Notes: generated by a model from the letters alone, not told the origin. 64,000 nt of DNA from Candidatus Saccharimonadales bacterium (GCA_041600715.1 JBFIJM010000001.1:256387-320386); one strand, 5' to 3'. Shown: positions 138-21,499, numbered from the stretch's first letter. Translations and numbers: made by a program.

Positions 138-610
138 TTTTTAGCCTCTTTCTTTTGTGCAGGCTTCTTTACAGCCGGTTTCTTAACCGTAGGTTTGGCA
201 GGAGCTTCAGCTTCTGCTTTGACAGGCTTTGGCGTTGGTGTTTTGACAGACAGATCGTCTACAAAGCTGATTCTTGCCATTTGAGCATTATCACCTCTAC
301 GAAGACTAGTGCGCTCAATTCTTAAGTGCCCACTGCTACGTGCAGTAAGCTTCGGGGCAATTTCATCTACTAGTTTATGCGCTGTCTCTATAGTTTGTAA
401 CTTAGCAATAATTTGTCGTCTAGAATGCAAAGTATTTTTTTTAGCTTTCGTGATAAGCTTTTCGGTATACGGAACAGTTTCTTTTGCTTTATGAAGTGTA
501 GTCTCTATTGACTCGTACTTAATCAACGATTCAGCGAGTCCCTTCATAAGAGCTCGTCGTTGATCACGTTCACGACCAAATTTTCGACCTTTATATCCGT
601 GACGGTGCAT
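134..610 (-). CDS. rplQ: 50S ribosomal protein L17
   Basis: 158-aa ORF starting [25 protein letters not shown], an L17 signature. It lies directly downstream of rpoA and has a Lys/Ala/Pro-rich C-terminal tail. Confidence 0.96.
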
Positions 611-612
611 TA

Positions 613-698
613 GGCAACTCCTTTCGGACTTGCAGTAACTTGGAAATAGGAACTAGGAACTATTTTTGCTAATTGCAAATTCCTAATTTCTAGTTTCT
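613..698 (-). repeat. Heptad-repeat hairpin element, copy A (rpoA|rplQ gap)
   Basis: Plus strand reads GGCAACTCCTTT...GGAAATAGGAACTAGGAACTA...GCTAATTGCAAATTCCTAATTTCTAGTTTC. It is homologous to the copies at 7218-7302 and 8269-8353. Confidence 0.8.
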
Positions 699-722
699 TA
701 TGTTGAGTAAAACGAGACATCT

Positions 723-1673
723 TTAGAACTCCATCTCCGCCATTTTTTCCTTCACTTCATCGAGCGCTTTACTGCCGAAACCTTTAAGGTCCCTTAATTC
801 AGCATCACTAAGCGAGAACAAATCCTTTAGTGTGTGGATATCGTTATTAACTAATGCGTTAGTTGTGCGAGCAGAAAGATTCAAATCTTCGATAGATGTC
901 ATTAGTGCTGGTGAATCTTCGTTTTCTTCACCGCCTGCAACTGATTCTGTGCCAGATGGAGTTAGTGGCACGCTTGCTTCTACTCGTGTTTTACCTGCAA
1001 GAGCAGTGTATTGATTTACTAAGATAGCTGCTGCTTCCTCAAATGCGTCTGCAGGAGTGATTGATCCGTCGGTTTCAACATTGATAATTAGCTTATCAAG
1101 GTCAGTCATTTGCCCAACACGCGTGTTCTCTACCTTATATCGAACTCGTTGTACTGGACTGAACAAAGCATCGATTGCGATCTGGTCGGTAACTTTCTTT
1201 TTACTAGAAACTTCTTCTACTGTTCTATAACCACGGCCAATCTCAATAATAATCTCAGCACCAAAAGTAGCTTTTTCATCATCGATTGTAGCGATTACAT
1301 GATCTTTGTTGACGACTTCCACGTCAGAATTAGTTTCTATATCTGAGGCAGTAATTACGCCTTTACCTTTTTTATTAATTCTTAAGGTTTGTGGTTCGTC
1401 GCTAAACACACGGAATACAACACCCTTAACATTAAGAATGATCTCTACTAGATCTTCCTTAACACCTGGTAATGTTGTGAACTCGTGAGTTGCACCATCA
1501 AATTTAATTCCTGTTATTGCTGCTCCAGCGAGTGATGAAAGCATTACTCTTCTGAGACTGTTGCCAAGTGTCATGCCGTAACCACTATGCAGTGGTTCAA
1601 CAGTGAAGGTTGCGGCTTTATCGTCATGCTTATCTACATTTACGACGCCTGGTGTATGGATCATTTTAGACAT
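723..1673 (-). CDS. rpoA: DNA-directed RNA polymerase subunit alpha
   Basis: 316-aa ORF containing EPLHSGYGMTLGNSLRRVMLSSLAGAAI and a C-terminal domain motif (LNLSARTTNAL). Position is canonical, between rpsD and rplQ. Confidence 0.97.
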   Translation of the reverse strand: MSKMIHTPGVVNVDKHDDKAATFTVEPLHSGYGMTLGNSLRRVMLSSLAGAAITGIKFDGATHEFTTLPGVKEDLVEIILNVKGVVFRVFSDEPQTLRINKKGKGVITASDIETNSDVEVVNKDHVIATIDDEKATFGAEIIIEIGRGYRTVEEVSSKKKVTDQIAIDALFSPVQRVRYKVENTRVGQMTDLDKLIINVETDGSITPADAFEEAAAILVNQYTALAGKTRVEASVPLTPSGTESVAGGEENEDSPALMTSIEDLNLSARTTNALVNNDIHTLKDLFSLSDAELRDLKGFGSKALDEVKEKMAEMEF

Positions 1674-1691
1674 TATTGTTTCTCGCCTCCC

Positions 1692-2312
1692 TTAGCGTGA
1701 GTAATACTCAACAATTAGTTGTTCGTTAATATCAACCTCGGCTTCCTCACGCGTAGGAACTCCGGTTACTTTAATGGTCATTTTTTTACGGTCAGCCTGT
1801 ATCCAGCCAGGAAACTCACTAGGAGCTGGGCTGACTGTGTCAAGATTCTTAAAATATTCACTCTTTTGACTCTTCGGACGTACTACAAGTACATCACCCG
1901 CCTTAAGACGTATAGATGGAATATCAACTCTTCGTCCGTTTAGCTCAAAGTGACCATGAGTCACAAGTTGACGTGATGCTCGTCTACTCATTGCAAAACC
2001 AGCACGATAAACGGCATTATCTGCTCGCTGTTCGAGTAGTTGGAGTAAAACTGCTCCTGACTGACCTTTTGTTCGACTGGCTTCTTTCATAAGATTACTG
2101 AACTGTTTCTCTAGTAATCCGTAAAGTCGCTTAACCTTTTGCTTTTCACGAAGTTGTAGTGAGTACTGACTGGCTTTAGAACGGAAACCACGACCACCAG
2201 CTTGTTGACCTGGAGGTGTTGAGCGCTTCATTAATGCCTTGTGAGCTTTGGGGTGAAGTGCATAGCCCTCACGACGGCTCATCTTAACAATACTTTGTGT
2301 ATCTCTAGCCAT
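1692..2312 (-). CDS. rpsD: 30S ribosomal protein S4
   Basis: 206-aa ORF with a YSLQLREKQKVKRLYG motif and an S4 domain. Synteny rpsK-rpsD-rpoA. Confidence 0.97.
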   Translation of the reverse strand: MARDTQSIVKMSRREGYALHPKAHKALMKRSTPPGQQAGGRGFRSKASQYSLQLREKQKVKRLYGLLEKQFSNLMKEASRTKGQSGAVLLQLLEQRADNAVYRAGFAMSRRASRQLVTHGHFELNGRRVDIPSIRLKAGDVLVVRPKSQKSEYFKNLDTVSPAPSEFPGWIQADRKKMTIKVTGVPTREEAEVDINEQLIVEYYSR

Positions 2313-2314
2313 TA

Positions 2315-2701
2315 CTAAACCCTCCGAGCCTTTCTTGGACGACAGCCACCATGAGGTACACCTGTTACATCCTTGATTGACTCTACAGCAACACCCGCAC
2401 CTGCAAGTGCCCGCACCGCAGACTCTCTACCAAGACCAACGCCTTTGATGTAAACATCTGCCTTAGAGAAGCTATACTGCTGTTTTGCTGAGTTAATCGC
2501 TTTCTCGGCTGCGATTTGAGCAGCGTATGCTGTTCCTTTTTTGCTTCCACGGAAACCGCATCCACCAGCACTTGCCGTTGTCAAAGCGCCCCCACTCGGG
2601 TCAGTTACTGTAATAATTGTATTATTGAAAGTAGCCTGCACATGAACCTGCCCAGAGGATACGACGCGTTTGGTTTTTTTCTTCTTAATTGTATCTGCCA
2701 T
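2315..2701 (-). CDS. rpsK: 30S ribosomal protein S11
   Basis: 128-aa ORF with HVQATFNNTIITVTDPSGGAL and a C-terminal PHGGCRPRKARRV. Confidence 0.97.
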   Translation of the reverse strand: MADTIKKKKTKRVVSSGQVHVQATFNNTIITVTDPSGGALTTASAGGCGFRGSKKGTAYAAQIAAEKAINSAKQQYSFSKADVYIKGVGLGRESAVRALAGAGVAVESIKDVTGVPHGGCRPRKARRV

Positions 2702-2719
2702 AATCTATATCATCCTCTC

Positions 2720-3106
2720 CTACGTCTTAGACGCAACCTTCTTAGCTGTGCCACCTACAGTTGTCTTCTTACCGCGACGTGTGCGAGCATTTGTTTTAGT
2801 TCTCTGGCCACGGCTTGGTAGGTTGGCCTTATGACGGATACCACGATAAGCATTTATATCTTTTAATCGTTTGATGTTACCAGATACTATTCGTTGAAGT
2901 TCACCTTCTACAGTGTACTTTTCAGATATAACGTCTGTTATACGACCAATTTCTGCATCTGTCAGATCTTTAACTCTTACAGTCGGCTCCACCTTAGCAG
3001 ACTCCACAATTTCTGACGCAAACTTAGGACCAACTCCATAAATGTACGTTAACGCAATCTGAATTTGTTTTTCGTTGGGTATTGTAACCCCTGATATTCG
3101 AGCCAT
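2720..3106 (-). CDS. rpsM: 30S ribosomal protein S13
   Basis: 128-aa ORF starting MARISGVTIPNEKQIQIALTYIYGVG. Confidence 0.97.
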   Translation of the reverse strand: MARISGVTIPNEKQIQIALTYIYGVGPKFASEIVESAKVEPTVRVKDLTDAEIGRITDVISEKYTVEGELQRIVSGNIKRLKDINAYRGIRHKANLPSRGQRTKTNARTRRGKKTTVGGTAKKVASKT

Positions 3107-3109
3107 GTA

Positions 3110-3226
3110 TTAACCCTGCCTTTGCTTATGCTTAGGCTTTAATTTATTGATAACATAAAGTCTGCCTTTACGACGAACAATCTTGTCGTCTGGCGAGATC
3201 TTTTTTACACTTGCACGTACTTTCAT
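3110..3226 (-). CDS. rpmJ: 50S ribosomal protein L36 (cysteine-free form)
   Basis: Not in the ORF track because it is 38 aa. Own translation gives [41 protein letters not shown] at 3224-3226, TAA at 3110-3112, and the gene sits between infA and rpsM. Confidence 0.92.
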
Positions 3227-3310
3227 ACGGATCATGACCTTTCTTTATTAGCGCATGACACACTGCTTAATATTATTGATCCTAAACTCTAAGAACTTTT
3301 TCAAAATAGT

Positions 3311-3351
3311 ACAGTTGCCTGACAACCATAAACGGTTGTCGATCTAACTGT
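3311..3351 (-). terminator. Hairpin between infA and rpmJ (weak terminator or processing site)
   Basis: The minus strand reads ACAGTTAGATCGACAACC-GTTTAT-GGTTGTCAGGCAACTGT followed by ACTATTTTGA. Confidence 0.3.
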
Positions 3352-3376
3352 GCATTTTGTAAAAGTACTTCGCGGA

Positions 3377-3598
3377 TTAGGATTTTCGGTATGTGATTCG
3401 TCCCTTTGTAAGGTCATAGGGAGTCAACTCAACCGTGACAGTATCACCAGGTACGATTCGGATATAATGTTTCCGCATCTTACCAGCGACATGAGCTATA
3501 ATTTGATGGCCGTTCTCAAGCTCTACCCGGAACTGTGTTCCTGGCAGTGTCTCGATGATTACTCCCGATAGCTCGATTACTTCCTTATTTTTGGCCAT
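3377..3598 (-). CDS. infA: Translation initiation factor IF-1
   Basis: 73-aa ORF containing [41 protein letters not shown]. Confidence 0.97.
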
Positions 3599-3658
3599 AA
3601 AATATAACTAAGAATCTATTGTAACAGATATTTACAACATATGTAAAGAGGTGATTCT

Positions 3659-5146
3659 CTATTTTCTTAACTTTCTGTTGATTTTTGTGAGTTTTGGTAT
3701 AAACTTACGCTTTTTTTCGTCCTTCTCAACTGTCTGGAAGAAGTCACTACCGTCATACTGACTGTAAGTTATGAGCATAGCTCTTGATTCAATCTGACGT
3801 AGTGTTTCTAACGACACAGATACAAGTATCAGAATAGAGGTGCCCGCAATTGCCAGGTTATTACCGTAGAATGCTTCTGCAAAGATTGGTACAACAGCCA
3901 ACGCACCGAGGGCCAATGCCCCAAATAACGTTAGACGATTCACGACTCTCGATAAATATTTTTCTGTCTGACGACCAGATCGTACATCGGCAATGAAGCC
4001 ACCTTGTCTCTGTAGATTCTCAGAAATATCCTTTGCATTAAAGGCAATGCTTGTGTAGAAGAAAGTGAACAAGAATACTAGAACAAAGTAGATCACAGGA
4101 TATAGATAAGCTGTCCACTCACCAGAGCTTAATGTCTGCGCAGTCGGGGGCTGAAACCATGCAGTTAAATTAGCTCCTAGTTCTTGTAAACGCATACTAC
4201 TGTTGTTAGTAAGTAATTGTCCTGCAAAACTAGGTACGCTCAAGAATGCTACAGCAAAGATAATTGGGATAACACCTGCGGTTATAATCTTAACTGGCAA
4301 GACTGTAGTTACTCCTCCGTATGTTCGGTTTCCTTGGACACGCTTAGCATAATGAACAGTAAGTCGTCTTTGAGCCTCATTTAGCCGTACTACAGCCATA
4401 GTCACAAGTAATATGACTAGAGTTAGCGCTCCTACATAAATGATTGCGTCGCGACTCACAGGTAATGTCATGCCTAGTACTTCCCACTTATCACCCGCAA
4501 AAACAGAAGCAATAAGACTCGCGGCCGTTGTCGGCAAGCTTGCCACAATACCTACCGTAATTAGAAGAGATATACCGTTTCCTATGCTTTGCTCAGTCAT
4601 CAACTCACCAAGCCACATAAGCATCATTGCCCCACCTGTAAGCGCAGAAACCATGAGGATCCATTGCATTGGTGAACTATTAGCTGTAATATCGCCCAGC
4701 CCTGCAACAGATGACGCTTGTTGTTTAACTAAGAATATGGCCCCGATTGATTGTATTATCGCCAAGGGGAAGGTTAATGTTCGGGTCATCTGGTTAATCT
4801 TCTTGCGTCCGAACTCACCTTCCTTGTTCATTGCTTCTAAGGATGGAATTGCACGAGTAAGCAACTGCATGATAATACTAGCGTTAATGTATGGTCCAAG
4901 CCCTACCAGCATAATCGAGAAGTTGGCTAATGCACCACCAGATATAACATTAACAAAACTAAGGAACTGCGGAGTGTCTGTAGATGTAAACAAACTATCA
5001 AGAACCTGACGAAGGGTTTGCGGGTCACTAAGAGGTATCGGTATGTGCGCCAAAATACGGAATATAACAACAATACCTAGGATTATGAGTATGCGCTTGC
5101 GCATATCGCCATCGGCTAACGATTTCCAAATCAATTTCCAGTTCAT
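3659..5146 (-). CDS. secY: Preprotein translocase subunit SecY
   Basis: 495-aa polytopic membrane protein with SGGALANFSIMLVGLGPYINASII and GNGISLLI motifs, in the canonical position after rplO. It has a basic C-terminal tail. Confidence 0.96.
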   Translation of the reverse strand: MNWKLIWKSLADGDMRKRILIILGIVVIFRILAHIPIPLSDPQTLRQVLDSLFTSTDTPQFLSFVNVISGGALANFSIMLVGLGPYINASIIMQLLTRAIPSLEAMNKEGEFGRKKINQMTRTLTFPLAIIQSIGAIFLVKQQASSVAGLGDITANSSPMQWILMVSALTGGAMMLMWLGELMTEQSIGNGISLLITVGIVASLPTTAASLIASVFAGDKWEVLGMTLPVSRDAIIYVGALTLVILLVTMAVVRLNEAQRRLTVHYAKRVQGNRTYGGVTTVLPVKIITAGVIPIIFAVAFLSVPSFAGQLLTNNSSMRLQELGANLTAWFQPPTAQTLSSGEWTAYLYPVIYFVLVFLFTFFYTSIAFNAKDISENLQRQGGFIADVRSGRQTEKYLSRVVNRLTLFGALALGALAVVPIFAEAFYGNNLAIAGTSILILVSVSLETLRQIESRAMLITYSQYDGSDFFQTVEKDEKKRKFIPKLTKINRKLRK

Positions 5147-5238
5147 ACCAGTTTAGACTTCCCTCTCTTAGGTGTTATTCAACAGATAGCATCAATTATA
5201 CAGTAAGCACCCCATTTACAGTAGCCTCGCTGTAAAAG

Positions 5239-5667
5239 TTACTCAGTGAAGTAACGTTTACCTGTTTTATAGGCCTCAATATAGTTATCCATACAACCAA
5301 AAAGGTTATCCGGTAATTCCGTGTCAATATCATACCAACCCCATGAGCGGAGTTTGTGCGGCTCTCCAACTGTTGGTTCACCTGATTTCCATATAGCGAC
5401 CATTCCAATATCGACATAATGCTTAGGCATGTATCGGCGGAGATTTGTTGTACAGAGATAGTCTACTTGCTCGATTTGCATACTAGACCCTGCTTCTTCT
5501 TCTAGCTCACGCAGTATTGACTCTTCAAACGACTCGCCATACTCAAAGTGTCCACCTGGTCCACCGTATTCACCCACTCCATGTGAGCTAATACGCTCAC
5601 CTAGAAGAATTTTATTGTCTCTAACGACTAACAGTCCGAGCCCTACCAACGGTCTTTGCGATTCCAT
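5239..5667 (-). CDS. Nudix hydrolase
   Basis: 142-aa ORF with a Nudix box, GGPGGHFEYGESFEESILRELEEEAGS. It lies between rplO and secY. Confidence 0.85.
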   Translation of the reverse strand: MESQRPLVGLGLLVVRDNKILLGERISSHGVGEYGGPGGHFEYGESFEESILRELEEEAGSSMQIEQVDYLCTTNLRRYMPKHYVDIGMVAIWKSGEPTVGEPHKLRSWGWYDIDTELPDNLFGCMDNYIEAYKTGKRYFTE

Positions 5668-5711
5668 AACAGATAGTTTAACCCTGACGATTTATTCAGA
5701 CAAGCACAAGA

Positions 5712-5742
5712 AAAAGGACTCCTCATAAGATGAAGAGTCTTT
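5712..5742 (-). terminator. Hairpin downstream of rplO (possible attenuator or terminator)
   Basis: The minus strand reads AAAGACTC-TTCATCTTATGAG-GAGTCCTTT followed by TTCTTG. The stem is imperfect. Confidence 0.3.
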
Positions 5743-5760
5743 AGGCAATCTTGATTAAGA

Positions 5761-6249
5761 TTATTTAGCGGCTTTTTTGCCACGTGTGCGAGTTGTTGTA
5801 GATGGTCGCTTAACCTGTTCTACTTGCTCATATGTACCACCTACAGCTTCTACAGCTGCGACTGCGCTTGCGCTAGCAGATTGCAACTTAACAGTTATCT
5901 TCTTTTTAAGCTCACCCTTTACGACAAGCTTTACCTTTTCGTAGGGTGATGCGATAAGACCAGCTTCTGCTAGGACTGCGGTGTCTATAGTTGCCTTACC
6001 AAGGTCTTGCAACTGCCCTGTATAGATAGCCGTAGCTGGAGTTCGTTTGCTAGTGAAACCACGAAGTTTTGGTATACGTAGATAAAGTGGCATCTGACCA
6101 CCTTCAAATCCTGGCCGTACACCACCACTCTTACGCGCGCCTTGTCCTTTTGTACCACGACCGGCAGTTTTACCTTTGCCAGCTGATATACCACGTCCAA
6201 CACGAGTAGATTTTTTATTGCCTTTTACGTTAAGTTCATGAAACTTCAT
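5761..6249 (-). CDS. rplO: 50S ribosomal protein L15
   Basis: 162-aa ORF with RVGRGISAGKGKTAGRGTKGQ. Its ATG overlaps the rpsE stop by 1 nt. Confidence 0.97.
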   Translation of the reverse strand: MKFHELNVKGNKKSTRVGRGISAGKGKTAGRGTKGQGARKSGGVRPGFEGGQMPLYLRIPKLRGFTSKRTPATAIYTGQLQDLGKATIDTAVLAEAGLIASPYEKVKLVVKGELKKKITVKLQSASASAVAAVEAVGGTYEQVEQVKRPSTTTRTRGKKAAK

Positions 6250-6860
6250 TATTTCGCCTCCGTCGCAAGAGTCGCTTGCTTCTTGTCACTAGTCTCTGAT
6301 TTTACTGATTTTGGAGCTTTGCTGGTGACTGGTGACTTTTTACTAGAGACTACAGGCTTGCCCTGACGCGTAATCCACTTGTCGGCTGGAGTCATTTCCT
6401 TCAGCGCTTCAAGCGTAGCGTAAGCGGTGTTAATTTTGTTAGCTGAACCAAGTGACTTAGATAGTGCATTACTAACACCAGCTACTTCTAGAACCGTTCG
6501 CACCACACCACCTGCAATAAGACCAGTACCAGCACTTGCTGGCTTAAGCAAGATGTTTGCGCCACCGACTTTTGCCTGTGCTTCATGTGGGAACGTACCT
6601 TTGTACAAGTGAAGTCCGATAAAGTTCTTTTTAGCTACGTCTACTGCTTTTGCTACAGCTGCAGTTACGTCAGCACCTTTAGCAATACCAATTCCAACGC
6701 GACCTTTGCGGTCGCCTACAACTACTAGTGCGCGAAAACGAAAACGACGTCCACCTTTTACAACTCTAGCAACACGGTCAATATGTACTACTCGCTCATC
6801 GAACTGTTTTTCTACTTCTGGAGCATCATTCTGTCTGCGTGGTCGATTATTGTCTGCCAT
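6249..6860 (-). CDS. rpsE: 30S ribosomal protein S5
   Basis: The track ORF was trimmed to the ATG at 6858-6860 (MADNNRPRRQ...), which is 1 nt after the rplR stop. Contains VVKGGRRFRFRALVVVGD and a Ser/Lys-rich C-terminal extension. Confidence 0.95.
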   Translation of the reverse strand: MADNNRPRRQNDAPEVEKQFDERVVHIDRVARVVKGGRRFRFRALVVVGDRKGRVGIGIAKGADVTAAVAKAVDVAKKNFIGLHLYKGTFPHEAQAKVGGANILLKPASAGTGLIAGGVVRTVLEVAGVSNALSKSLGSANKINTAYATLEALKEMTPADKWITRQGKPVVSSKKSPVTSKAPKSVKSETSDKKQATLATEAK

Positions 6861-6861
6861 A

Positions 6862-7215
6862 TTAGAAATCCAAACCTTCCTTGCGCGCTGCATCAGCAAG
6901 CGCTTTTACTCGTCCGTGATAGATACGGGCACCTCTATCAAAGGCAACTTTCTTTACTTTCTTAGCTTTCGCTTTCTTAGCGATTTCAGCGCCGACCCAA
7001 GTAGCAACTTCTGTCATGGTACCCTTTTGGTTTGACCCTGCAGAACTAACGCTTACGATTGTAGCGTGCTTGCTATCATCAATAATTTGAGCTGACACAT
7101 GGCGATTGCTCACGGTAACACTTAGGCGTGGTCGCTCGGTTGTACCTTTCACCACTGTTCGCACACGATTTGCGCGTCGAACGCTATTCTTCATTTTAGA
7201 TACTAAACGATTCAT
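6862..7215 (-). CDS. rplR: 50S ribosomal protein L18
   Basis: 117-aa ORF with RPRLSVTVSNRHVSAQIIDD and FDRGARIYHGRVKALADAARKEGLDF. Confidence 0.97.
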   Translation of the reverse strand: MNRLVSKMKNSVRRANRVRTVVKGTTERPRLSVTVSNRHVSAQIIDDSKHATIVSVSSAGSNQKGTMTEVATWVGAEIAKKAKAKKVKKVAFDRGARIYHGRVKALADAARKEGLDF

Positions 7216-7217
7216 CG

Positions 7218-7302
7218 GGTAACTCCTATTGTCGTTACAGGAACAAGGAAATAGGAACTAAGAACTAGTTCAGCTAATTTCGAATTTCTGATTTCTAATT
7301 TC
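7218..7302 (-). repeat. Heptad-repeat hairpin element, copy B (rplF|rplR gap)
   Basis: Plus strand reads GGTAACTCCT...CAGGAACAAGGAAATAGGAACTAAGAACTAGTTCAGCTAATTTCGAATTTCTGATTTCTAATTTC. By eye it is roughly 85-90 percent identical to copy C. Confidence 0.85.
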
Positions 7303-7307
7303 AACAT

Positions 7308-7847
7308 TTATTTGTCCTTACCTGACTTACCGCTCTTACGAACAATGCGCTCGTCAGCGTATTTAATACCTTTACCCTTGTATGGCTCTGGCTTTTTAAG
7401 TGCACGTATCTCTGCTGCCGCTTGACCGACTTGTTGCTTACTTATGCCACTAATTGTAATATTCATTTGCTCAACCTTGGCATCTACACCATCGGGAAGA
7501 TTAAATACGACCTCGTGCGAAAAGCCTAAATTCATCTTAAGATCACGGCCAACCAGTGCGACACGGAAACCAACTCCATTAACTTCTAGTTTTTTTTCAA
7601 AACCTTGGCTTACACCAGTAACCATATTAGCTATTAATGCTCGCATTAAACCGTGCTTAGCACGTACTTTCGGCTCATCGTTATCGCGGGTAACTATGAT
7701 TTCATCACCTTCTTGGGTAATGTTAACTCCTGGCATAGTGAACTGCGATAATGTGCCTTTTGGGCCTGTGGCCGTAATAGCATCATTGTCGACAGTGATT
7801 GTCACACCGCTCGGGAGCTTGATTGGTAGTTTTCCTACTCGACTCAT
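7308..7847 (-). CDS. rplF: 50S ribosomal protein L6
   Basis: 179-aa ORF starting MSRVGKLPIKLPSGVTITVD and ending ...PYKGKGIKYADE. Confidence 0.97.
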   Translation of the reverse strand: MSRVGKLPIKLPSGVTITVDNDAITATGPKGTLSQFTMPGVNITQEGDEIIVTRDNDEPKVRAKHGLMRALIANMVTGVSQGFEKKLEVNGVGFRVALVGRDLKMNLGFSHEVVFNLPDGVDAKVEQMNITISGISKQQVGQAAAEIRALKKPEPYKGKGIKYADERIVRKSGKSGKDK

Positions 7848-7870
7848 GTGTTATTCCTCAATTCTCTCTT

Positions 7871-8266
7871 TTAATAAACTTTACAGATTAATTCACCACC
7901 AACGCGGGTCTTTTTTGCATCATCACCAGTCATCAATCCTTGAGGAGTTGAGACAATGACAATACCTCGTCCACGCTTAATGTTCGGTATTTTGTCGACT
8001 GATGTGTACATACGACGACCAGGACGACTCATTCTTTTAATTTCGGTAATTCTTGCGTTAGTATTTTCTTTATTAATCGTGATGACTAATTTCTTCTCGA
8101 TACCCTCGCCAGCTACTATTACGCCGTCTATGAAGTTGTTTGACTTAAGAAGTTCAGCGACACTTTGTTTGATGCGTGAATACGGCATACTAACTTCTCG
8201 CTTATTTACAGCAATAGCATTGCGGATTCGGGTTAACATATCTGATATTGGGTCTGTGCTTACCAT
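7871..8266 (-). CDS. rpsH: 30S ribosomal protein S8
   Basis: 131-aa ORF containing DPISDMLTRIRNAIAVNKREV. Confidence 0.97.
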   Translation of the reverse strand: MVSTDPISDMLTRIRNAIAVNKREVSMPYSRIKQSVAELLKSNNFIDGVIVAGEGIEKKLVITINKENTNARITEIKRMSRPGRRMYTSVDKIPNIKRGRGIVIVSTPQGLMTGDDAKKTRVGGELICKVY

Positions 8267-8268
8267 CT

Positions 8269-8353
8269 GGCAACTCCTTTGTTCGTTGCAGGAACTAGGA
8301 AATAGGAACTAGGAACTAGTTCAGCTAATTTCGAATTTCTAATTACTAATTTC
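8269..8353 (-). repeat. Heptad-repeat hairpin element, copy C (rpsN|rpsH gap)
   Basis: Plus strand reads GGCAACTCCTTTGTTCGTTGCAGGAACTAGGAAATAGGAACTAGGAACTAGTTCAGCTAATTTCGAATTTCTAATTACTAATTTC. It has 7-nt periodicity in both arms, and the arms are partly complementary. Confidence 0.85.
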
Positions 8354-8359
8354 ATATAC

Positions 8360-8629
8360 TTACCAACTAGCTTTCGTTACACCTGGGATTTCACCCTTTG
8401 AGGCATGTTCACGGAATGATAAACGCGACAATCCGAACTGACGCATATAAGCGTGTGGTCGGCCTGTCTCGGTACATCGATTCTTCTTTCGGGTTGGCGA
8501 TGAATTGCGAGGAAGTTTATGAAGACCATCGAGGTCGCCCATTGCCTTAAGCTCAGCACGTTTCTCTGCATATTTGTCGATCATTTTAAGGCGCTTAGCG
8601 TCTCTTGCGATGTTTGATTTTCTTGCCAT
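8360..8629 (-). CDS. rpsN: 30S ribosomal protein S14 (long, non-zinc form)
   Basis: 89-aa ORF starting [20 protein letters not shown] and ending ...[11 protein letters not shown]. It has a single Cys and no CxxC pairs. Confidence 0.95.
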
Positions 8630-8630
8630 A

Positions 8631-9209
8631 TTATTTGGCCTCCTTTTCGAACGGCATGCCGAACTTCTCTAATAATGCACGTGAATGTGTTTTATCTTCA
8701 GATTTAGTTACAAATACTATCTGCATACCGTGAGGTTTTGTAGTCTCTTCGAATGAAAGCTCAGGGAAGATTGACTGCTCCACGATACCAATAGAGTAGT
8801 TGCCTTGCTTATCGAAAGCTTTGGAGCTAACACCATGAAAGTCTCGTAATCTAGGCATGACAATATTTATCAAACGATCCATAAATTCGTACATTCGATC
8901 ACCACGCAAAGTTACTTTAAGACCAATCTTATTTCCTTCACGTAGTTTGAAAGTAGCGATAGACACTTTAGCATAAGTTTCTACAGGCTTTTGGCCAGTG
9001 ATTTTAGTTAGGGTATTGGTAGCGACTTCGAACATCTGCTTGTCGTCTTTAGAGCGACCAAGCCCAACATTTAAAACAATTTTTTCAAGCTTAGGGACTT
9101 GATTAACATTTTTAAGTTCTAGCTCTTTGACTAACTCCGAAACATAAGAATCAAGATACGCTTGCTTTAAACGAGGTAATGTCACTGCTTTAGTTGTAGT
9201 TTTAGCCAT
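8631..9209 (-). CDS. rplE: 50S ribosomal protein L5
   Basis: 192-aa ORF with [18 protein letters not shown] and [20 protein letters not shown]. Confidence 0.97.
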
Positions 9210-9541
9210 TACTTGATCTCCTTTCCGGTGCTTTTATATATACGGACCTTTTTGCCATCTTTGTTGACAGTATATCCAACTCTAGATGGTTTCTTACTTA
9301 TAGGCTCTACCACAGAAACTTTACTTACCCAGATTGGCTTAGTAATTTCTATAATCCCACCCTGCGGATACTGCTTATTAGGCTTCATCGCTTTCTTTAC
9401 GATATTTATACCCTCTACAGTAACTTTATTCTCTGTGGGATGAGTTGCTGTAACAGTGCCCGTTTGGCCCTTATATTTTCCTGCCAAAACGATTACATTG
9501 TCACCTTTATTAATACGGATTTTATATACAGGATTTTTCAT
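9209..9541 (-). CDS. rplX: 50S ribosomal protein L24
   Basis: 110-aa ORF with a KOW motif, INKGDNVIVLAGKYKGQTGTV. Synteny rplN-rplX-rplE. Confidence 0.96.
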   Translation of the reverse strand: MKNPVYKIRINKGDNVIVLAGKYKGQTGTVTATHPTENKVTVEGINIVKKAMKPNKQYPQGGIIEITKPIWVSKVSVVEPISKKPSRVGYTVNKDGKKVRIYKSTGKEIK

Positions 9542-9909
9542 TATAGTACCTCCGGAGCAAGACTGATTATCTTGCTATAGCCTTGGTCTCGAAGCTCACG
9601 AGGCACTGGCCCAAAGATACGGGTTGCTTTAGGGTTTTTATCGTCACCAATAATAACCGCAGCGTTATCGTCGAACTTAATACTTGAACCATCTTTACGG
9701 CTAATCTTATTTCTTGTACGTACCACAACAGCCCGAACAACAGTCTTCTTTTTTACATTTCCACTTGGGTTAGCTTGCTTTACCGTCGCTACAATAACGT
9801 CGCCAACTCTTGCATAACGCCTTCTTGTTCCACCTAAGACGCGAATACAAAGAAGCTCTTTTGCACCACTGTTATCGCAGACGATAAGACGTGATTCCTG
9901 TTGTATCAT
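9541..9909 (-). CDS. rplN: 50S ribosomal protein L14
   Basis: 122-aa ORF starting [27 protein letters not shown]. Confidence 0.98.
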
Positions 9910-12134: not shown

Positions 12135-12464
12135 TTAAACCTCAGCCCTTTCAAATTTTTCTTGCTTAACAGCTTCTTGCATGTGCAGCACTCCGTCTAC
12201 TACTGCTTTTAAAAACGGAGCCTCATTGACTGGCGTATACCATAAATGTCTGCTGGTTTCCCTGAGTTCACTTGCAATATCAACAATTTCGCCCACCGAG
12301 GGTTCATGCATAACTCTGCACAAAGTAGCGCCTACGTTTATTCCTATAACTTTTAGCTTAACGTTAGGGTCTTCAATGTCGCCATATAGCTGATCCACTC
12401 TATCATCATTCATATAAATGTGGCTTGGTTCTGATGGCGGAAATTCATGATAATTTAAAATCAT
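12135..12464 (-). CDS. Hypothetical 109-aa protein inserted between rplB and rpsS
   Basis: The track ORF 12135-12611 was trimmed to the ATG at 12462-12464 (MILNYHEFPPSEPSHIYMNDD...). That ATG is 1 nt after the rplB TAG, a GAGGAAA Shine-Dalgarno lies 5 nt upstream, and the stop is 3 nt before the rpsS ATG. Composition is balanced and protein-like. I recognise no family. Confidence 0.65.
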   Translation of the reverse strand: MILNYHEFPPSEPSHIYMNDDRVDQLYGDIEDPNVKLKVIGINVGATLCRVMHEPSVGEIVDIASELRETSRHLWYTPVNEAPFLKAVVDGVLHMQEAVKQEKFERAEV

Positions 12465-12465
12465 A

Positions 12466-15191: not shown

Positions 15192-15470
15192 CTACATCAC
15201 GATAAACACGCCGATTGGTAGCCAGAAGGCGATAAACATACCCACTAAGATCAAGGCAACTTCAATTTTGCGGTCAATCTGGAAATGATCATGCGAAGCG
15301 AATACTAGCGCTATTACTGCACCAAGTGGTAATGGAAGTTCTGTACCATTTTGATACTGCAGTCTGACCCACATACTACTGAGGATTAAATACATTACTA
15401 ACTTAAGGAAAAATGCGCTGTCAGATGTAGCTGAAGATTTTTTGTTTTTTTGTTTTTTTGTTTTGACCAT
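15192..15470 (-). CDS. Hypothetical small membrane protein (92 aa)
   Basis: It has a basic N-terminus (MVKTKKQKNKKSS) followed by about 3 hydrophobic segments. I recognise no family. Confidence 0.5.
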   Translation of the reverse strand: MVKTKKQKNKKSSATSDSAFFLKLVMYLILSSMWVRLQYQNGTELPLPLGAVIALVFASHDHFQIDRKIEVALILVGMFIAFWLPIGVFIVM

Positions 15471-15539: not shown

Positions 15540-16076
15540 TTAACAACGTTGAGTAGATGCTTTGGTATAAAAAGTTTTTACTCGTACTTTGTTTTCATCA
15601 TCTTTAATAAAGTACCTGCTTCTTCCAGCTAGTTTTCGGGTTTTTTCGCCTTTTTTGCAGTCCCGAATACTTAGTTTTTCGGTAAATGACTCCTTGTCAC
15701 CACCAGTAACTCGGATATGTCCACTTGACACCTTGTTTACCTTCTTACCGGATCTTGCAACAGTGTCATAAATAACTTTTGAACGAGCTCCGCCATAATA
15801 TACGCACTCAGGATCTTGGGCTGGTAGTTCTGCCTTATGGGTCGTTTTAGTTGCTCCAAACGATCTAGGGAAACTAAACTTGTAACTACCTGCTATTGCA
15901 AGCGCACCACAGTACTCTGTCATCTCTTCATTGTATTTTTGCGTTGATTCTGACTCTGTAACTGGAGCGTTATCTTCTACAGATACGTGACCATTAGCTA
16001 TTTCAGAAGTGACTGCAATTGAAGCCGATGAAGCTAAAATAGCCATTCCTGTTAATGCAGATTTTGGTACTTCCAT
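15540..16076 (-). CDS. Hypothetical protein, probable signal peptide (178 aa)
   Basis: A strong AGGAGA Shine-Dalgarno lies 5 nt before the ATG at 16074-16076. The N-terminus is hydrophobic (ALTGMAILASSASIAV) and the gene has its own promoter. Confidence 0.65.
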   Translation of the reverse strand: MEVPKSALTGMAILASSASIAVTSEIANGHVSVEDNAPVTESESTQKYNEEMTEYCGALAIAGSYKFSFPRSFGATKTTHKAELPAQDPECVYYGGARSKVIYDTVARSGKKVNKVSSGHIRVTGGDKESFTEKLSIRDCKKGEKTRKLAGRSRYFIKDDENKVRVKTFYTKASTQRC

Positions 16077-16679: not shown

Positions 16680-17210
16680 CTACTTTTGTCCAGGGTTTTG
16701 AGGGGTCGTAACTACATTAATGCCAACCGTGCTAAGTGAGCCTATGGCTTGTTGCGCCTGTGGCGAATAATAAACTTTGCCCTTATCGCTACAGAGGGTT
16801 TCACTTAAATCATCAACTTTATTTTCTGGCTCGATGATATATTCATCCTCGCCGTAGAAAAATCCCCCTTCATCTACATAAAAAATTGTGTTTGCTACCC
16901 CGTTTACATTTCTTCTATCTTGAACAACTGAACCATAGTCTACATCTAAATCATTCACTCCAATCCTGCTATCGTACTGAAGAATCGGCAAAGAATTAGT
17001 AAACTCAGCAACTCCCTTCTGGAGATTATTGTGTGCTTGACCAGGATTTGCTAACGGCTCTGAGCCTAGAGCAAATCCACTAGGACAAGCTTTTATCTCT
17101 GCTGAACCCTTATCTTTTTTTAATTCATTTCCACAAGCGGAAAGCGTGAATGAGGCTAATAGCACACTTGTAGAAGCTATTAGACGCTCTTTAGTAATAC
17201 GTTCTTTCAT
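16680..17210 (-). CDS. Putative lipoprotein (176 aa)
   Basis: The signal peptide carries a lipobox, SVLLASFTLSAC-GNE. A GAGGAG Shine-Dalgarno precedes the ATG. The gene lies between tuf and rpsJ. Confidence 0.7.
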   Translation of the reverse strand: MKERITKERLIASTSVLLASFTLSACGNELKKDKGSAEIKACPSGFALGSEPLANPGQAHNNLQKGVAEFTNSLPILQYDSRIGVNDLDVDYGSVVQDRRNVNGVANTIFYVDEGGFFYGEDEYIIEPENKVDDLSETLCSDKGKVYYSPQAQQAIGSLSTVGINVVTTPQNPGQK

Positions 17211-17282: not shown

Positions 17283-18467
17283 CTATTTGTTGATTTTGGT
17301 AACTACACCAGCGCCAACAGTACGGCCACCTTCGCGGATGGCAAAGTTAAGACCTTGATCCATAGCGATCGGTGCAAGTAGCTTCACTTTGAAAGTGATA
17401 GTGTCGCCAGGCATGACCATTTCTTTGTCAGCTGGAAGTTCAACCTCACCAGTTACATCAGTAGTTCGGAAGTAGAACTGAGGCTTATAACCCTTGAAGA
17501 AAGGAGTGTGTCGACCGCCTTCTTCTTTTGTTAGGATGTACACTTCTGCATCAAACTCTGTGTGAGGAGTAATGCTACCAGGCTTACAAATAACTTGTCC
17601 GCGCTCGATATCATCACGCTCAACACCTCGAAGCAAGATACCGGCATTATCACCAGCTTGTCCTTGATCTAGGCTTTTCTTGAAAGCTTCGATACCAGTT
17701 ACAACTGATTTACGAGGTTCACGAATACCAACAATCTCAACTTCTTCGTTTACTTTAACAATACCAGTTTCGATACGACCGGTTGCAACGGTACCACGAC
17801 CTTTGATAGAAAATACATCTTCAATAGGCATAAGGAATGGCTTATCAAGTTCGCGAGTTGGCTCTGGAACGAATTCGTCCATAGCTTTGATTAGTTCCAT
17901 TATTGCGTCTTCGTTAGCTGAGTCGCCTTCAAGTGCTTTAGTAGCAGAACCCTTAATGATAGGAGCGTCTTCGTCGAAGCCGTTCTTTGCAAGAAGTTCA
18001 CGGATATCCATTTCTACTAGTTCAACAAGTTCTGGGTCTGCAAGATCCATTTTGTTCATAAATACTAGGATCTTAGGAACACCAACCTGCTTTGCAAGTA
18101 GTACGTGCTCACGAGTTTGAGGCAAAGGACCGTCGTTTGCGCCCACCACAAGGATAGCGCCATCAATCTGTGCTGCTCCTGTGATCATGTTCTTAACGTA
18201 GTCGGCGTGACCTGGCATGTCGACATGAGCATAGTGACGCTTTTCTGACTCATACTCTTGGTGAGAAGTGGCGATGGTAATACCACGCGCTTTTTCTTCT
18301 GGAGCGTTGTCGATCTCGTCATAATTTTTTGGTTTGTTAACAGCGCTTGGAAGTTTCTTTGCAAGCACGTGTGTGATAGCAGCAGTCAAGGTAGTCTTAC
18401 CGTGGTCAACGTGACCCATAGTACCGACGTTCACATGAGGCTTACTGCGGTCAAAAGTATCAGCCAT
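17283..18467 (-). CDS. tuf: Elongation factor Tu
   Basis: 394-aa ORF with [18 protein letters not shown] and NKMD G-motifs. The alignment spans the full length. Confidence 0.99.
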
Positions 18468-18591: not shown

Positions 18592-18834
18592 TTATAGCTT
18601 CTGACGATGCTTCTGATATGCCAAACATAACCAGAGCAGTGAACTAACAGCTACCATAGCAGACGATATAAACAATTGAAGCGAATAAAACGTGGCGCTA
18701 AAAGAAGCTAGCACAAGTCCAGTAACAACACTGGTTCTTAGGTGGGGCTTATCAAGCTTGGATTTTAACGAAGGAATCAACGCCAGTGCTAGTAACAGGT
18801 TTCCCAGACTAAACACGCCGTCTTGCCAGCTCAT
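18592..18834 (-). CDS. Hypothetical small membrane protein (80 aa, about 3 TM segments)
   Basis: The track ORF 18592-18957 was trimmed to the ATG at 18832-18834 (MSWQDGVFSLGNLLLALALIPSL...), which follows the TAA of the upstream small ORF by 1 nt. It has three hydrophobic segments and a basic C-terminus. Confidence 0.5.
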   Translation of the reverse strand: MSWQDGVFSLGNLLLALALIPSLKSKLDKPHLRTSVVTGLVLASFSATFYSLQLFISSAMVAVSSLLWLCLAYQKHRQKL

Positions 18835-18835
18835 T

Positions 18836-19081
18836 TTAGAGGGGTAGCCCAGGGCTGAAAGTTGCTGATAAATCGACTGCCTCGAGTACAGGTCCTTGAG
18901 CACATCTTGCGCCACAGGTACCGTCAGGGTTTGGTCCCGAGCAGGTGATAACCGCACAATCCAGCAATGCTACTTTGCCAGGCCTTAATTTGCATAGATT
19001 TTCTAATTGTTCCTGAACTTCGCCTACCTTGAGAGCGCCAGTTCCTTCACCACACTCTTTACTGAGTCGATATTCTGGCAT
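18836..19081 (-). CDS. Hypothetical Cys-rich small protein (81 aa), weakly resembling a thioredoxin-like [2Fe-2S] ferredoxin
   Basis: It starts 5 nt after the fusA stop and contains 6 Cys. The segment GTCGARCAQGPVLE resembles, from memory, the C-x3-C-xxGP motif of thioredoxin-like ferredoxins. This is not verified. Confidence 0.45.
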   Translation of the reverse strand: MPEYRLSKECGEGTGALKVGEVQEQLENLCKLRPGKVALLDCAVITCSGPNPDGTCGARCAQGPVLEAVDLSATFSPGLPL

Positions 19082-19086
19082 ATCTA

Positions 19087-21171
19087 TTACTTCCCGTTTT
19101 TTGCAATTATTGCTTCCGTTACATTTGGCGGTACATCAGCATAGTGGTCAAGCTCCATGCTTGAGCTAGCTCGACCTTGCGTAGTGCTACGAAGTTCTGT
19201 GGTGTAACCGAACATTTCCCCAAGAGGCACAAACGCTGTAATCTGCTTAATACCGTTTGCAAGATCATCCATAGCTTCAATACGGCCACGCTTAGAGTTA
19301 AGGCCACCGATTACATCGCCCATAAACTCCTCTGGAGTTACAGCAACGACTTTCATTACAGGCTCAAGTAGTACTGGGGATGCCTTCTTAACACCTTCTT
19401 GCAGTGCCATAGAACCGGCAATTTTAAATGCCATTTCGTTGGAGTCAACATCATGGTAACTTCCGTCGTAAAGCTCTGCTTTAACATCAACCACCGGATA
19501 TCCTGCAAGAACACCACTGTTCATTGCCTCGATGATACCTTGCTCTACAGGCTTGATGTACTCACTTGGTACAGCTCCACCCTTAATAAGATTGATAAAC
19601 TCAAAGCCTTTGCCGGCTTCGTTCTGTGAAAGTCGGATCCATACGTGTCCGTATTGTCCACGCCCACCAGACTGTTTAACGAATTTGCCTTCTACCTCAA
19701 CGGCATCTTTTCGGATTGTTTCACGATACGCCACCTGAGGTTGGCCGATATTTGCCTCTACTTGGAACTCACGCTTCATTCGGTCTACTAGGATTTCAAG
19801 ATGAAGCTCGCCCATACCGCTGATGATAGTTTGACCAGTTTCATGATCAACCTTCACGCGGAATGTCGGATCTTCTTCTGATAAACGTTGTAGGGCAAGA
19901 CTCATTTTCTCTTGGTCAGATTTAGTTTTAGGCTCTATTGCAATCGATACAGGCGGTTCTGGGAATTCAATAGATTCAAGCTCGATAGGATTATTTGGAT
20001 CACATAGTGTATGCCCCGTAGTTGTACCCTTAAGACCAACGATCGCTGCGATATCTCCGGCAGTAACTTCTGATACGTCTTCGCGCTTATCGGCCTGCAT
20101 ACGTACAATACGTCCGATACGCTCTTTCTCGCCAGTAGAACTGTTGAGCACATAACTACCAGCGACCAACTTACCTGAGTAAACTCGGAAGTATGCCAAC
20201 TTACCAACAAAAGGATCGGTATTAATCTTGAAAGCTAGACCTGCAAGTGGTGCGGTTTCTTCAGGCTTTCGTTCAACTTCATCACCTGTTTTAGGGTGAG
20301 TGCCCCAGCTAGATCCACGATCAAGCGGACTAGGAAGATATTCTGTTGCGATATCAAGTAACTTTTCTACAATCACACCACGACCATCACCACCAGAAAC
20401 AGTAAAGAATGCGCCAGTCAATGTTGCAGTTCTGATGGCTTGCTTTATCTCGGCTTCACTGAGGCCTTCCTCGCCTACTTCAAAATATTTCTCAAGCATT
20501 TGTTCGTCTTCAGCGACAGCGTTTTCAATAAGCAGACTTCTGTATTTTTTAGCCTTATCGAGCATATCAGCAGGAATTTCTCCTTCGATCAGCTCTTTAT
20601 CTGTAAAGTCTTTATAGGTATATGACTTCATGCTCACTAGGTCGATAACGCCATTTATTTCTTGTTCGAATCCTATTGGAAGATGGATAGGAAAGGCACG
20701 TTTCGTAAGTCTGGCGTGGATTGTGTCTAACGATTTATAAAAATCACCACCGGTTTGATTAATCTTATTGATAAAGCAAATACGAGGCACATTGTAACCG
20801 TCAGCTTGTCGCCATACAGTTTCTGACTGTGATTCAACACCCATTTTACCGTCAAATACAGTTATAGCACCGTCGAGTACACGAAGTGATCGCTGTACTT
20901 CGACTGTAAAGTCGATATGCCCAGGTGTATCAATTATGTTAATCTGATGACCTTTCCAGTGGCAGGTCACTGCAGCGGATGCGATAGTAATACCGCGCTC
21001 ACGCTCTTGCTCCATAAAGTCAGTGGTAGTTCCACCTTCGTGAACCGCACCGATTTTATGCTTAAGCCCTGTACGGTACAAAATACCTTCAGTTGTTGTT
21101 GTCTTACCTGCATCAATGTGGGCAATAATCCCGATATTCCGCAATTTATCCATTGGTGTTGTCTTAGCCAT
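19087..21171 (-). CDS. fusA: Elongation factor G
   Basis: 694-aa ORF with [20 protein letters not shown] and NKINQ motifs. Full-length EF-G architecture. Confidence 0.99.
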
Positions 21172-21475
21172 CTATTGTTCCTTGTGCCATATCTTCATTA
21201 ATAATTGAACATTCATACCCTTGAATCATCCAGCCGCCTAAGCCATTACGACCGAGGAGCTTCATTGCACCTTCGCAAGGTCGCTTAAAAGCTTCTTCAC
21301 TAAGTTCGCTTATTGAAGCCTCTAGTTCCACAAGATCTTCTGCCATCCGTCGATCTACTTCTTCTTGAGGCAAATTTGCTGTTTCAATAAACTGCTTATC
21401 TTCAGAGTAGTCTGCCTTCGCAGGACAGTTTTGACATAGTTCTGGAAACTCAAAGCTTTTTAGTAATTCACCCAT
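21164..21475 (-). CDS. Hypothetical 103-aa acidic protein inserted between rpsG and fusA
   Basis: An AGGTGG Shine-Dalgarno lies 5 nt before the ATG at 21473-21475 ([20 protein letters not shown]...). The 3' end overlaps the fusA start by 8 nt (ATGGCTAA). I recognise no family. Confidence 0.6.
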
Positions 21476-21499
21476 TTTTTCCACCTAGTTGGGGGTTTT

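Follow-up and report, generated by a model that had tools for sequence, protein, structure and literature searches.

Ribosomal-protein cluster with three filled junctions

The window, by which we mean the whole 64-kb stretch of DNA analyzed here, carries the S10-spc-alpha ribosomal-protein cluster on its minus strand, where S14, S8, L6, L18, RpoA, and L17 were called with Pfam. With S8 identities of no more than 79% to proteins of Candidatus Saccharibacteria MAGs, the organism is a Saccharibacterium (TM7, CPR) outside the species-level genome set. Nearly all junctions in the cluster are shorter than 25 nt, as originally predicted, except for several gaps that contain extra ORFs.

A repeat search of the 64-kb window yielded one family of three 91-nt copies, here called A (rpoA/rplQ gap), B (rplF/rplR), and C (rpsN/rpsH), with a mutual identity of 76 to 89% (Table 1). 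Each copy consists of two heptad arrays of four units followed by a Shine-Dalgarno (SD) site, and the 93-nt sequence quoted in the original prediction for copy C is exact. Tandem Repeats Finder (TRF) reports two period-7 arrays of 3.7 to 4.3 units in all three copies, in agreement with the predicted heptad architecture. The arrays stop 24 to 26 nt short of the downstream start codon, and in each copy the element is indeed fused to the SD site of the downstream gene; in copy C, AAGGAG is located at positions 8274 to 8279 and the rpsH AUG follows 7 nt further on. Two 22-nt array probes match just the three family sites in the 64 kb, where 100 shuffles gave an expectation of 0.00.

The family had been estimated at three or four members. 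Three are present in about 69 kb of the genome (the window plus 5.4 kb past rplQ, covered by identical Logan contigs), and a fourth copy was found neither in the window nor in this extension. Strain polymorphism was not detected, every other recovered contig of the organism being 100% identical to the window. The organism is present in Logan runs SRR29257383 and SRR29257391.

Table 1. Positions of the three elements, their parts, and other features of the window
Feature	Position	Strand	Details
S14 gene (rpsN)	8360-8629	-	Pfam
S8 gene (rpsH)	7871-8266	-	Pfam
Copy C, rpsN/rpsH filler	8267-8359	-	93 nt; repeat family D1 and TRF
Copy C, 91-nt repeat	8264-8354		
Copy C, 5' array	8325-8353	-	GAAATTA GTAATTA GAAATTC GAAATTA G; TRF
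Copy C, 3' array	8291-8319 (TRF 8290-8319)	-	CTAGTTC CTAGTTC CTATTTC CTAGTTC C
Copy C, SD hairpin	8270-8289	-	GCAAC-GAACAAAGGA-GUUGC
Mini-ORF C	8260-8355	-	31 codons, MKLVIRNSKLAELVPSSYFLVPATNKGVARW and stop; ATG 4 nt past rpsN stop; TAA within ATGGTAA at rpsH start
Copy B, rplF/rplR filler	7216-7307	-	92 nt
Copy B, 91-nt repeat	7213-7303		
Copy B, arrays	7274-7302 and 7239-7268	-	TRF
Copy B, SD hairpin	7219-7238	-	GUAAC..GUUAC
Mini-ORF B	7212-7307	-	31 codons, MLKLEIRNSKLAELVLSSYFLVPVTTIGVTR and stop; ATG immediately after rplF TAA; stop shares ATGA with rplR start
Copy A, rpoA/rplQ filler	611-722	-	112 nt
Copy A, 91-nt repeat	608-698		
Copy A, arrays	666-698 and 637-662	-	TRF
Copy A, SD hairpin	614-633	-	GCAA..UUGC, inner UCC..GGA
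Mini-ORF A	610-720	-	36 codons, MSRFTQHKKLEIRNLQLAKIVPSSYFQVTASPKGVA and stop; ATG 2 nt past rpoA stop; stop shares TAATG with rplQ start
NUDIX gene between rplO and secY	5239-5667	-	
ORF of about 110 aa between rplB and rpsS	12135-12465	-	
ORFs between rpsJ and rplC, of 92 aa and 178 aa, respectively	15192-15470 and 15540-16076	-	no Pfam match
Octamer TTTTTTGT, 3.4 units	15438-15464	+	
Extra ORF between tuf and rpsJ	16680-17210	-	
Extra ORF between fusA and tuf	18592-18957	-	
Extra ORF between rpsG and fusA	21164-21484	-	

The window also hosts extra ORFs inside operons that are otherwise universal (Table 1). Some of the enlarged gaps are found elsewhere: an rplB/rpsS gap of about 300 to 330 nt recurs in six comparison loci (L007, L019, L025, L030, L040, and L048), and the rplO/secY gap of L007 measures 610 nt, similar to that in the window. 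The octamer repeat listed in Table 1 corresponds, on the coding (minus) strand, to the lysine-rich N terminus (MVKTKKQKNKK) of the 92-aa ORF between rpsJ and rplC.

Lineage-specific insertion at start codons

Ribosomal-protein genes were mapped in 80 related loci. The three junctions that measure 92 to 112 nt in the window measure 0 to 20 nt in about 70 related Saccharibacteria. When the junctions are set side by side, the start codons of the relatives' host genes lie 0 to 10 nt past the upstream stop, and the flanking coding sequence is kept to its last codon (KASW, GKDK, and EMEF, each followed by the stop). Because the same junctions are this short in about 70 relatives, the aligned junctions show the filler to be a lineage-specific insertion and not a conserved leader. 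Conservation in relatives, which the original prediction had proposed as a check, was thus not observed at these junctions.

Fillers of the same layout, 68 to 125 nt long, occur sporadically at other junctions of a few genomes. From 5' to 3', the layout comprises a heptad array, a centre, a second heptad array roughly complementary to the first, an SD hairpin, and the start codon. One genome (L021) has four such fillers, at rplB/rpsS, rpsS/rplV, rpsH/rplF, and rpoA/rplQ, and another (L026) has four consecutive ones; further examples are found in L069, L004, L057 (upstream of rpsJ), L072, and L080. The heptad sequence is alike within a genome and different between genomes. The elements of L021, L026, L069, and L084 are all in the sense orientation and at start codons, and the L084 element, which precedes a response-regulator/recO operon, is closely related to copy A.

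R1, a covariance model trained on five copies, was run against the window and 99 loci (1.47 Mb). In the other ribosomal loci (L002 to L081) it retrieved no new member; beyond the training copy in L069, there were marginal matches in L079 (E = 0.04) and L058 (E = 0.08). Neither a transposase nor terminal inverted repeats or a target duplication beyond the repeated ATG were found for the element. The arrays are imperfectly inverted relative to each other, and the ATG alone is repeated at both ends of the element. REP/BIME and MITE elements are imperfect palindromes or bear terminal inverted repeats, go with a cognate transposase (RAYT or an IS element), and reach high copy number in either orientation; the copies of the element observed here are all in the sense orientation. 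Of the three roles originally put forward for the element, a miniature mobile repeat comes closest, given its absence at these junctions in about 70 relatives and the presence of related elements at other junctions in a few genomes; its mobility is inferred.

Paired ACATTTT...AAAATGN arrays are located between rplQ and a trpS-like gene in L068 (about 18200 to 18300) and L069 (about 18290 to 18440). As these arrays lie upstream of a gene resembling that of tryptophanyl-tRNA synthetase, the architecture is not restricted to ribosomal-protein junctions. The apparent restriction to ribosomal operons may partly reflect that the comparison loci were fetched almost all around rpsH.

Two other kinds of filler were encountered. 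An rplE/rpsN filler of about 110 nt is common to two distant Saccharibacteria (L003, 9604 to 9712, and L063, 9614 to 9725); it contains the conserved blocks AGGGAAAAGAGCAGC ... GATGAGAAAAACCGTAnGGTTTGTCT and no heptads, is spanned by an ATG-initiated ORF that touches both neighboring genes, and could represent a small gene in its own right or an RNA motif. At the rpsE/rplO junction, which in other bacteria is the site of rpmD (L30), L021 (12067 to 12150) and L026 (3506 to 3584) have a filler of about 80 nt with a long-range stem of 13 to 14 bp (AATCACGTTAGAAT..ATTCTAACGTGAT) and a coupled ORF of 26 to 28 codons.

An open frame across every window copy

Each of the three window copies is spanned by an ATG-initiated ORF (mini-ORF) of 31, 31, or 36 codons. 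The original prediction overlooked these ORFs, which are tightly joined to both neighboring genes: their ATGs lie 0 to 4 nt past the upstream stop, and their ends fall at -2, +1, or +4 nt relative to the start of the downstream gene. The mini-ORF frame contains 0 stops, while the remaining five frames contain 1 to 6 each. In dinucleotide shuffles of gaps C, B, and A, a spanning ORF arises 1, 6, and 2 times per 1,000, respectively. A spanning ORF is present in 12 of the 18 heptad fillers counted across the loci, compared with 4 of 118 other gaps of 55 to 135 nt; the 6 heptad fillers without a full spanning ORF are from more distant genomes (L004, L069 rplB/rpsS, L072, and L080). Mini-ORF A, which is carried by a 771-kb NCBI contig, is annotated publicly as an unnamed gene once (L106, 2519 to 2629). 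According to the junction alignment, the mini-ORF ATG occupies the position of the ancestral host-gene start, so that it can use the ancestral SD in the 3' end of rplF and rpoA. We rejected a reading of the mini-ORF as an N-terminal addition to the downstream gene: the two are in different frames, and the downstream proteins can be aligned with those of relatives from the first codon onward.

Since 7-nt units pass through all frames, a unit bearing TAG gives an in-frame stop at every third unit, and strict periodicity would put one or more in-frame stops into every window array. The real arrays deviate from periodicity at exactly those positions. In unit 3 of the 5' array, TAG is replaced by TCG in copies C and B, by TTG in copy A, and by CAG in L084; in unit 3 of the 3' array, TAG or TAA is replaced by TAT in the window copies and L084 and by TCG in L069. 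Out-of-frame stop triplets are left intact, six to nine per copy. The stop-removing substitutions disrupt pairs of the long helix formed by the two arrays in all or most copies, and this cost in helix pairs indicates that translatability took priority over pairing. This pattern shows that selection keeps the mini-ORF frame open.

A covarying SD hairpin and a long helix lacking compensatory changes

The last 25 to 30 nt of the element include a 5-bp stem that presents the SD, with its 3' arm ending 3 to 4 nt before the AUG. Over 11 copies from three genomes, 98.2% of the cells are paired in this stem, compared with 31 to 51% in slid registers. One of its pairs varies between C-G (six copies), A-U (four), and U-A (one), with copy B among the changed copies, and a second pair switches from G-C to A-U. 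The SD hairpin is the sole part of the element with covariation support.

The two arrays had been predicted to form a hairpin of about 29 bp. Its imperfect complementarity, including the G-U pairs and periodic A-C mismatches, holds: the arms of copy C are complementary at 22 of 29 positions in the predicted register, and in four related copies 75.9% of the cells are paired in register, compared with 16 to 52% when the arms are slid by 1 to 3 columns. The same does not apply to a conserved structured RNA. Among the 29 pairs of the long helix there are 0 compensatory changes, and 11 pairs vary solely by pair loss. Copy C, considered the best copy in the original prediction, is thermodynamically ordinary relative to its shuffles (z of -0.16 and -1.18), and copy B gives z of +0.05 and -0.31; copy A alone among the window copies folds unusually well (z of -3.2 and -3.4). 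Because compensatory changes are lacking and copies B and C fold about as well as shuffled sequence, the long helix is an imperfect inverted repeat, and a conserved RNA structure is unsupported. The long hairpins of L021 and of some L026 copies are clearly stabler than their shuffles (z of -2 to -4, reaching -4.1 in L021), and the hairpin may therefore play a part of its own.

Rfam, applied with gathering thresholds to the whole window and at E ≤ 1 to positions 500 to 8700, reported nothing but one tRNA, which is consistent with the original statement that no r-protein leader or REP family known to its author has such an architecture. A promoter and terminator scan gave nothing above shuffle expectation; the region contains 15 terminator-like sites (13.8 expected) and one weak consensus match at 8322-8306. 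An intrinsic terminator or attenuator was rejected, as the hairpin is not followed by a U-run and the sites are at shuffle level. A cis-regulatory ribosomal-protein leader was likewise rejected on account of the absence from orthologous junctions, the lack of covariation in the long helix, and the lack of an Rfam match.

One rival explanation is a functional intercistronic RNA hairpin that serves in processing, in mRNA stabilization, or in tuning the ratio between upstream and downstream ribosomal proteins, with the ORF being incidental. We consider this unlikely. Although pairing of the arms is best in register, copy A and the L021 copies greatly outfold their shuffles, and the small SD hairpin covaries, the long helix changes by loss alone, copies B and C have z values of about 0 to -1.2, and no Rfam family matches at E ≤ 1. 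Moreover, the element is absent at the same junctions in about 70 relatives and tied to no single gene, and the removal of stops was fixed at the expense of base pairs.

Mini-ORF peptides

Five mini-ORF peptides had no match in Pfam or NCBIfam, and an HMMER profile of the three window peptides, searched against 1.84 billion representative proteins, retrieved the query itself and chance matches to large unrelated repeat proteins. Between copies, pN/pS is 0.64 to 0.88 and the differences are even across the three codon positions. The L021 and L026 elements have the same architecture and encode unrelated peptides. These comparisons show that the sequence of the mini-ORF peptide is not conserved; purifying selection on amino acids and homologues, both of which would characterize a conserved small-protein gene, were not found in them. 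Nevertheless, a pN/pS slightly below 1 may reflect weak selection on the peptide.

That the mini-ORFs constitute a real family of small basic proteins of 31 to 36 residues (for example, ribosome-associated microproteins), to which the repeats are secondary, is accordingly quite unlikely in our estimation. Such a family would fit the open frames and their favorable placement for expression, the pN/pS values, the one public annotation of copy A as a gene, and an LVPSSYF motif common to the copies. However, this motif is the translation of conserved heptads and nothing more, the differences between copies do not favor any codon position, and neither homologues nor a shared peptide in the L021 and L026 elements are seen; the gene would also be missing in most relatives.

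Heptad arrays in metagenome contigs

A 20-nt probe from the 3' array retrieved 23 metagenome stretches with G+C contents of 0.27 to 0.70, in which the CTAGTTC/CTATTTC array recurs. The contigs were characterized by their G+C content and neighboring genes. Many of the stretches are paired, with the form (AGGAAnT)n - centre - (AGTTCCT)n, and some comprise tens of units; some arrays abut start codons (for example, that of ispF in L082 and L098), and some are at gene ends. Paired AGGAAAT/AGTTCCT arrays in non-CPR metagenome contigs were also found on both strands with model R1, so that the covariance-model scan suggested in the original prediction extended the arrays to these contigs while adding no member in ribosomal-protein loci. 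Among the 23 metagenome stretches, L084 alone has a spanning ORF and an SD hairpin. On this basis, the heptad array appears to be widespread and usually untranslated, and the translated intercistronic form appears to be special to a few Saccharibacteria.

Several of these contigs deserve a separate description. Arrays of CTAGTTC, CTATTTC, CTGACTC, and CTATCTC with tens of units occur in L089 (about 5700 to 5900), L095 (about 9400 to 9700), and L099 (about 4450 to 4650); these contigs have a G+C content of about 0.45, two are from microbial-mat metagenomes, and one of the arrays is upstream of mnmG/gidA. In L085/L087, L093, L097, L102, and L104, A+T-rich paired arrays with a G+C-rich centre reside in contigs of 0.59 to 0.70 G+C; their neighbors include genes for an AMP-binding enzyme, a Ser/Thr kinase, and TetR and AraC regulators, and some are at convergent gene ends. 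The occurrence of one heptad in contigs of such different base composition suggests horizontal spread. In L090 (1 to 104), a CTGACCA/CTGACTT/ACTGACT array adjoins AGTTCCT units and is similar to the TAACTGA and STRR repeats known from Beggiatoaceae and cyanobacteria. The cyanobacterial STRR sequences were reportedly described by Mazel et al. in 1990.

The strict period of 7, with arrays directly before the SD and start codon, also raises the possibility that the heptads are a binding array, at about 7 nt per monomer, for a cold-shock-domain or S1-type protein that regulates downstream translation. Such a role has been proposed for the TAACTGA heptamer repeats, and this proposal and the binding of CspB at one protein per heptamer have been discussed (PMC4679880); AGTTCCT arrays also abut start codons in unrelated contigs, for example, upstream of ispF. 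We give this explanation little credence: the heptads are unlike between genomes with the same architecture (GAAATTA/CTAGTTC, GTATAAC/CGTAATA, AGTATAA/TACATAC, and others), units degenerate exactly where the reading frame demands it, and the cold-shock-domain motif is absent from a six-frame translation of the window.

Very unlikely, finally, is a neutral and untranslated product of replication slippage whose open frame and overlaps were inherited from one ancestral copy: the three window copies are homologous, so that their open frames are not independent events, and heptamers are the commonest long simple repeats in prokaryotes according to work cited in PMC4679880, but the ATG-bearing 5' flanks differ between copies and yet each provides an in-frame ATG 0 to 4 nt past the stop, the same in-frame stop is removed by different substitutions in different copies, and the independent L021 and L026 families show the same property.

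A proposed translational relay across the insertion

The explanation that we favor, and hold to be probable, is an intercistronic insertion at three ribosomal-protein start codons, resembling a mycobacterial interspersed repetitive unit (MIRU), that carries an ORF acting as a relay in translational coupling. Ribosomes would come either from termination at the end of the preceding gene or from the ancestral SD within its 3' end. Such a ribosome would start at the ATG of the element and read 31 to 36 codons, melting the imperfect hairpin and the SD hairpin on its way. It would then terminate on a stop that overlaps the downstream AUG (ATGA, TAATG, or ATGGTAA) and re-initiate at this AUG, aided by the element's own SD. 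The insert would in this manner retain the translational coupling of the uninterrupted junction, and its tolerance by the cell's most conserved operons would thereby be accounted for. A relay of this kind has been proposed for the MIRUs. The repeat-element part would be the heptad arrays in their inverted arrangement, belonging to a wider heptamer class; they probably arose or spread by slippage or some mobilization route, and the host does not seem to require them as a structure.

The insertions show that, in a reduced CPR genome, repeats can enter even the operons that are most conserved and most densely packed, and the likely price is an open frame that passes ribosomes from gene to gene. 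The elements also appear to be a natural example of selection on translatability alone, in which stops are cleared in one frame while the peptide drifts. The relay also offers a testable link between translation and the old question of why bacteria have heptamer repeats, and it calls for caution in annotation, as such fillers would be neither leaders nor true protein genes.

A broader and, in our view, doubtful proposal is that the paired AGGAACT/AGTTCCT arrays are a horizontally mobile, cross-phylum class with heptamer-specific mobilization or binding machinery, which in Saccharibacteria has taken the form of coupling cassettes targeted to start codons (ATG, translatable palindrome, SD hairpin, and ATG). 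Were this true, such cassettes would colonize even ribosomal-protein operons and leave these operons unbroken.

Comparison with known systems

Among the top-ranked papers of a literature search, heptamer repeats or elements of this kind are undescribed in Saccharibacteria or CPR. Four known systems share some of their properties.

The heptamer-repeat class of Beggiatoaceae, Cyanobacteria, and Bacteroidetes (PMC4679880; bioRxiv 10.1101/2022.06.06.494920) consists of tandem 7-nt units, 2 to 6 or more in number, that are intergenic, in forward orientation, and within a few nucleotides of start codons, in some cases in ribosomal-protein operons; as with the arrays described here, the distribution across phyla is patchy and a role in translation has been suspected. 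TAACTGA repeats near start codons (PMC4679880) and the heptamer repeats of Nostoc (bioRxiv 10.1101/2022.06.06.494920) belong to this class. However, repeats of the TAACTGA/STRR type form single direct arrays, often in place of the SD, and are not reported to be translated, whereas the window element has two inverted arrays, an SD hairpin of its own, and a spanning ORF. Its units, GAAATTA and CTAGTTC, also differ from TAACTGA and the STRR consensus.

Rickettsia palindromic elements (Ogata et al. 2000, as listed in PMC3184786), like other repeats fused in frame to genes, are palindromic repeats that survive translation by means of an open frame, but they lie inside host proteins, of which they become part, while the window element is a separate intergenic mini-cistron. 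In synthetic bicistronic designs and leader-ORF ribosome delivery, mentioned in PMC12548453, a short upstream ORF holds the downstream SD and ends at the start codon, and translating ribosomes unfold the mRNA before passing to the next gene, much as proposed here for the relay; the bicistronic design is an engineered device, whereas the element is a natural repeat insertion. Coupling by termination and re-initiation has been reviewed in the same source (PMC12548453).

The closest likenesses are to the above heptamer repeats of cyanobacteria and Beggiatoaceae and to the mycobacterial MIRUs, the latter described by Supply et al. 1997 as summarized in PMC12548453 and PMC3184786. MIRUs are short (40 to 100 bp) repeats inside operons, transcribed as part of a polycistronic mRNA, with filled and empty sites in related genomes; start codons are their insertion sites, and the internal ORF is translationally coupled to the host gene (PMC12548453); they have imperfect inverted repeats and carry ORFs that overlap the flanking genes (PMC3184786). 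They also occur as dozens of dispersed copies per genome, flanked by short direct repeats. The window element likewise lies between co-transcribed genes, has filled and empty sites in related genomes, and contains a codirectional internal ORF that overlaps or adjoins the neighboring stop codon at one end and the neighboring start codon at the other. It differs in having no sequence similarity to MIRUs and a host among the Saccharibacteria instead of Mycobacterium, in its two inverted arrays of 7-nt units and an SD within a covarying hairpin, and in its three copies seen in about 69 kb, all in ribosomal-protein operons and with the ATG alone repeated at both ends. MIRUs, moreover, are tandem units of 46 to 101 bp in variable number, whereas the window element is a single unit per junction. 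With one unit per junction and a saccharibacterial host, the element would work like a MIRU without being a member of the MIRU family.
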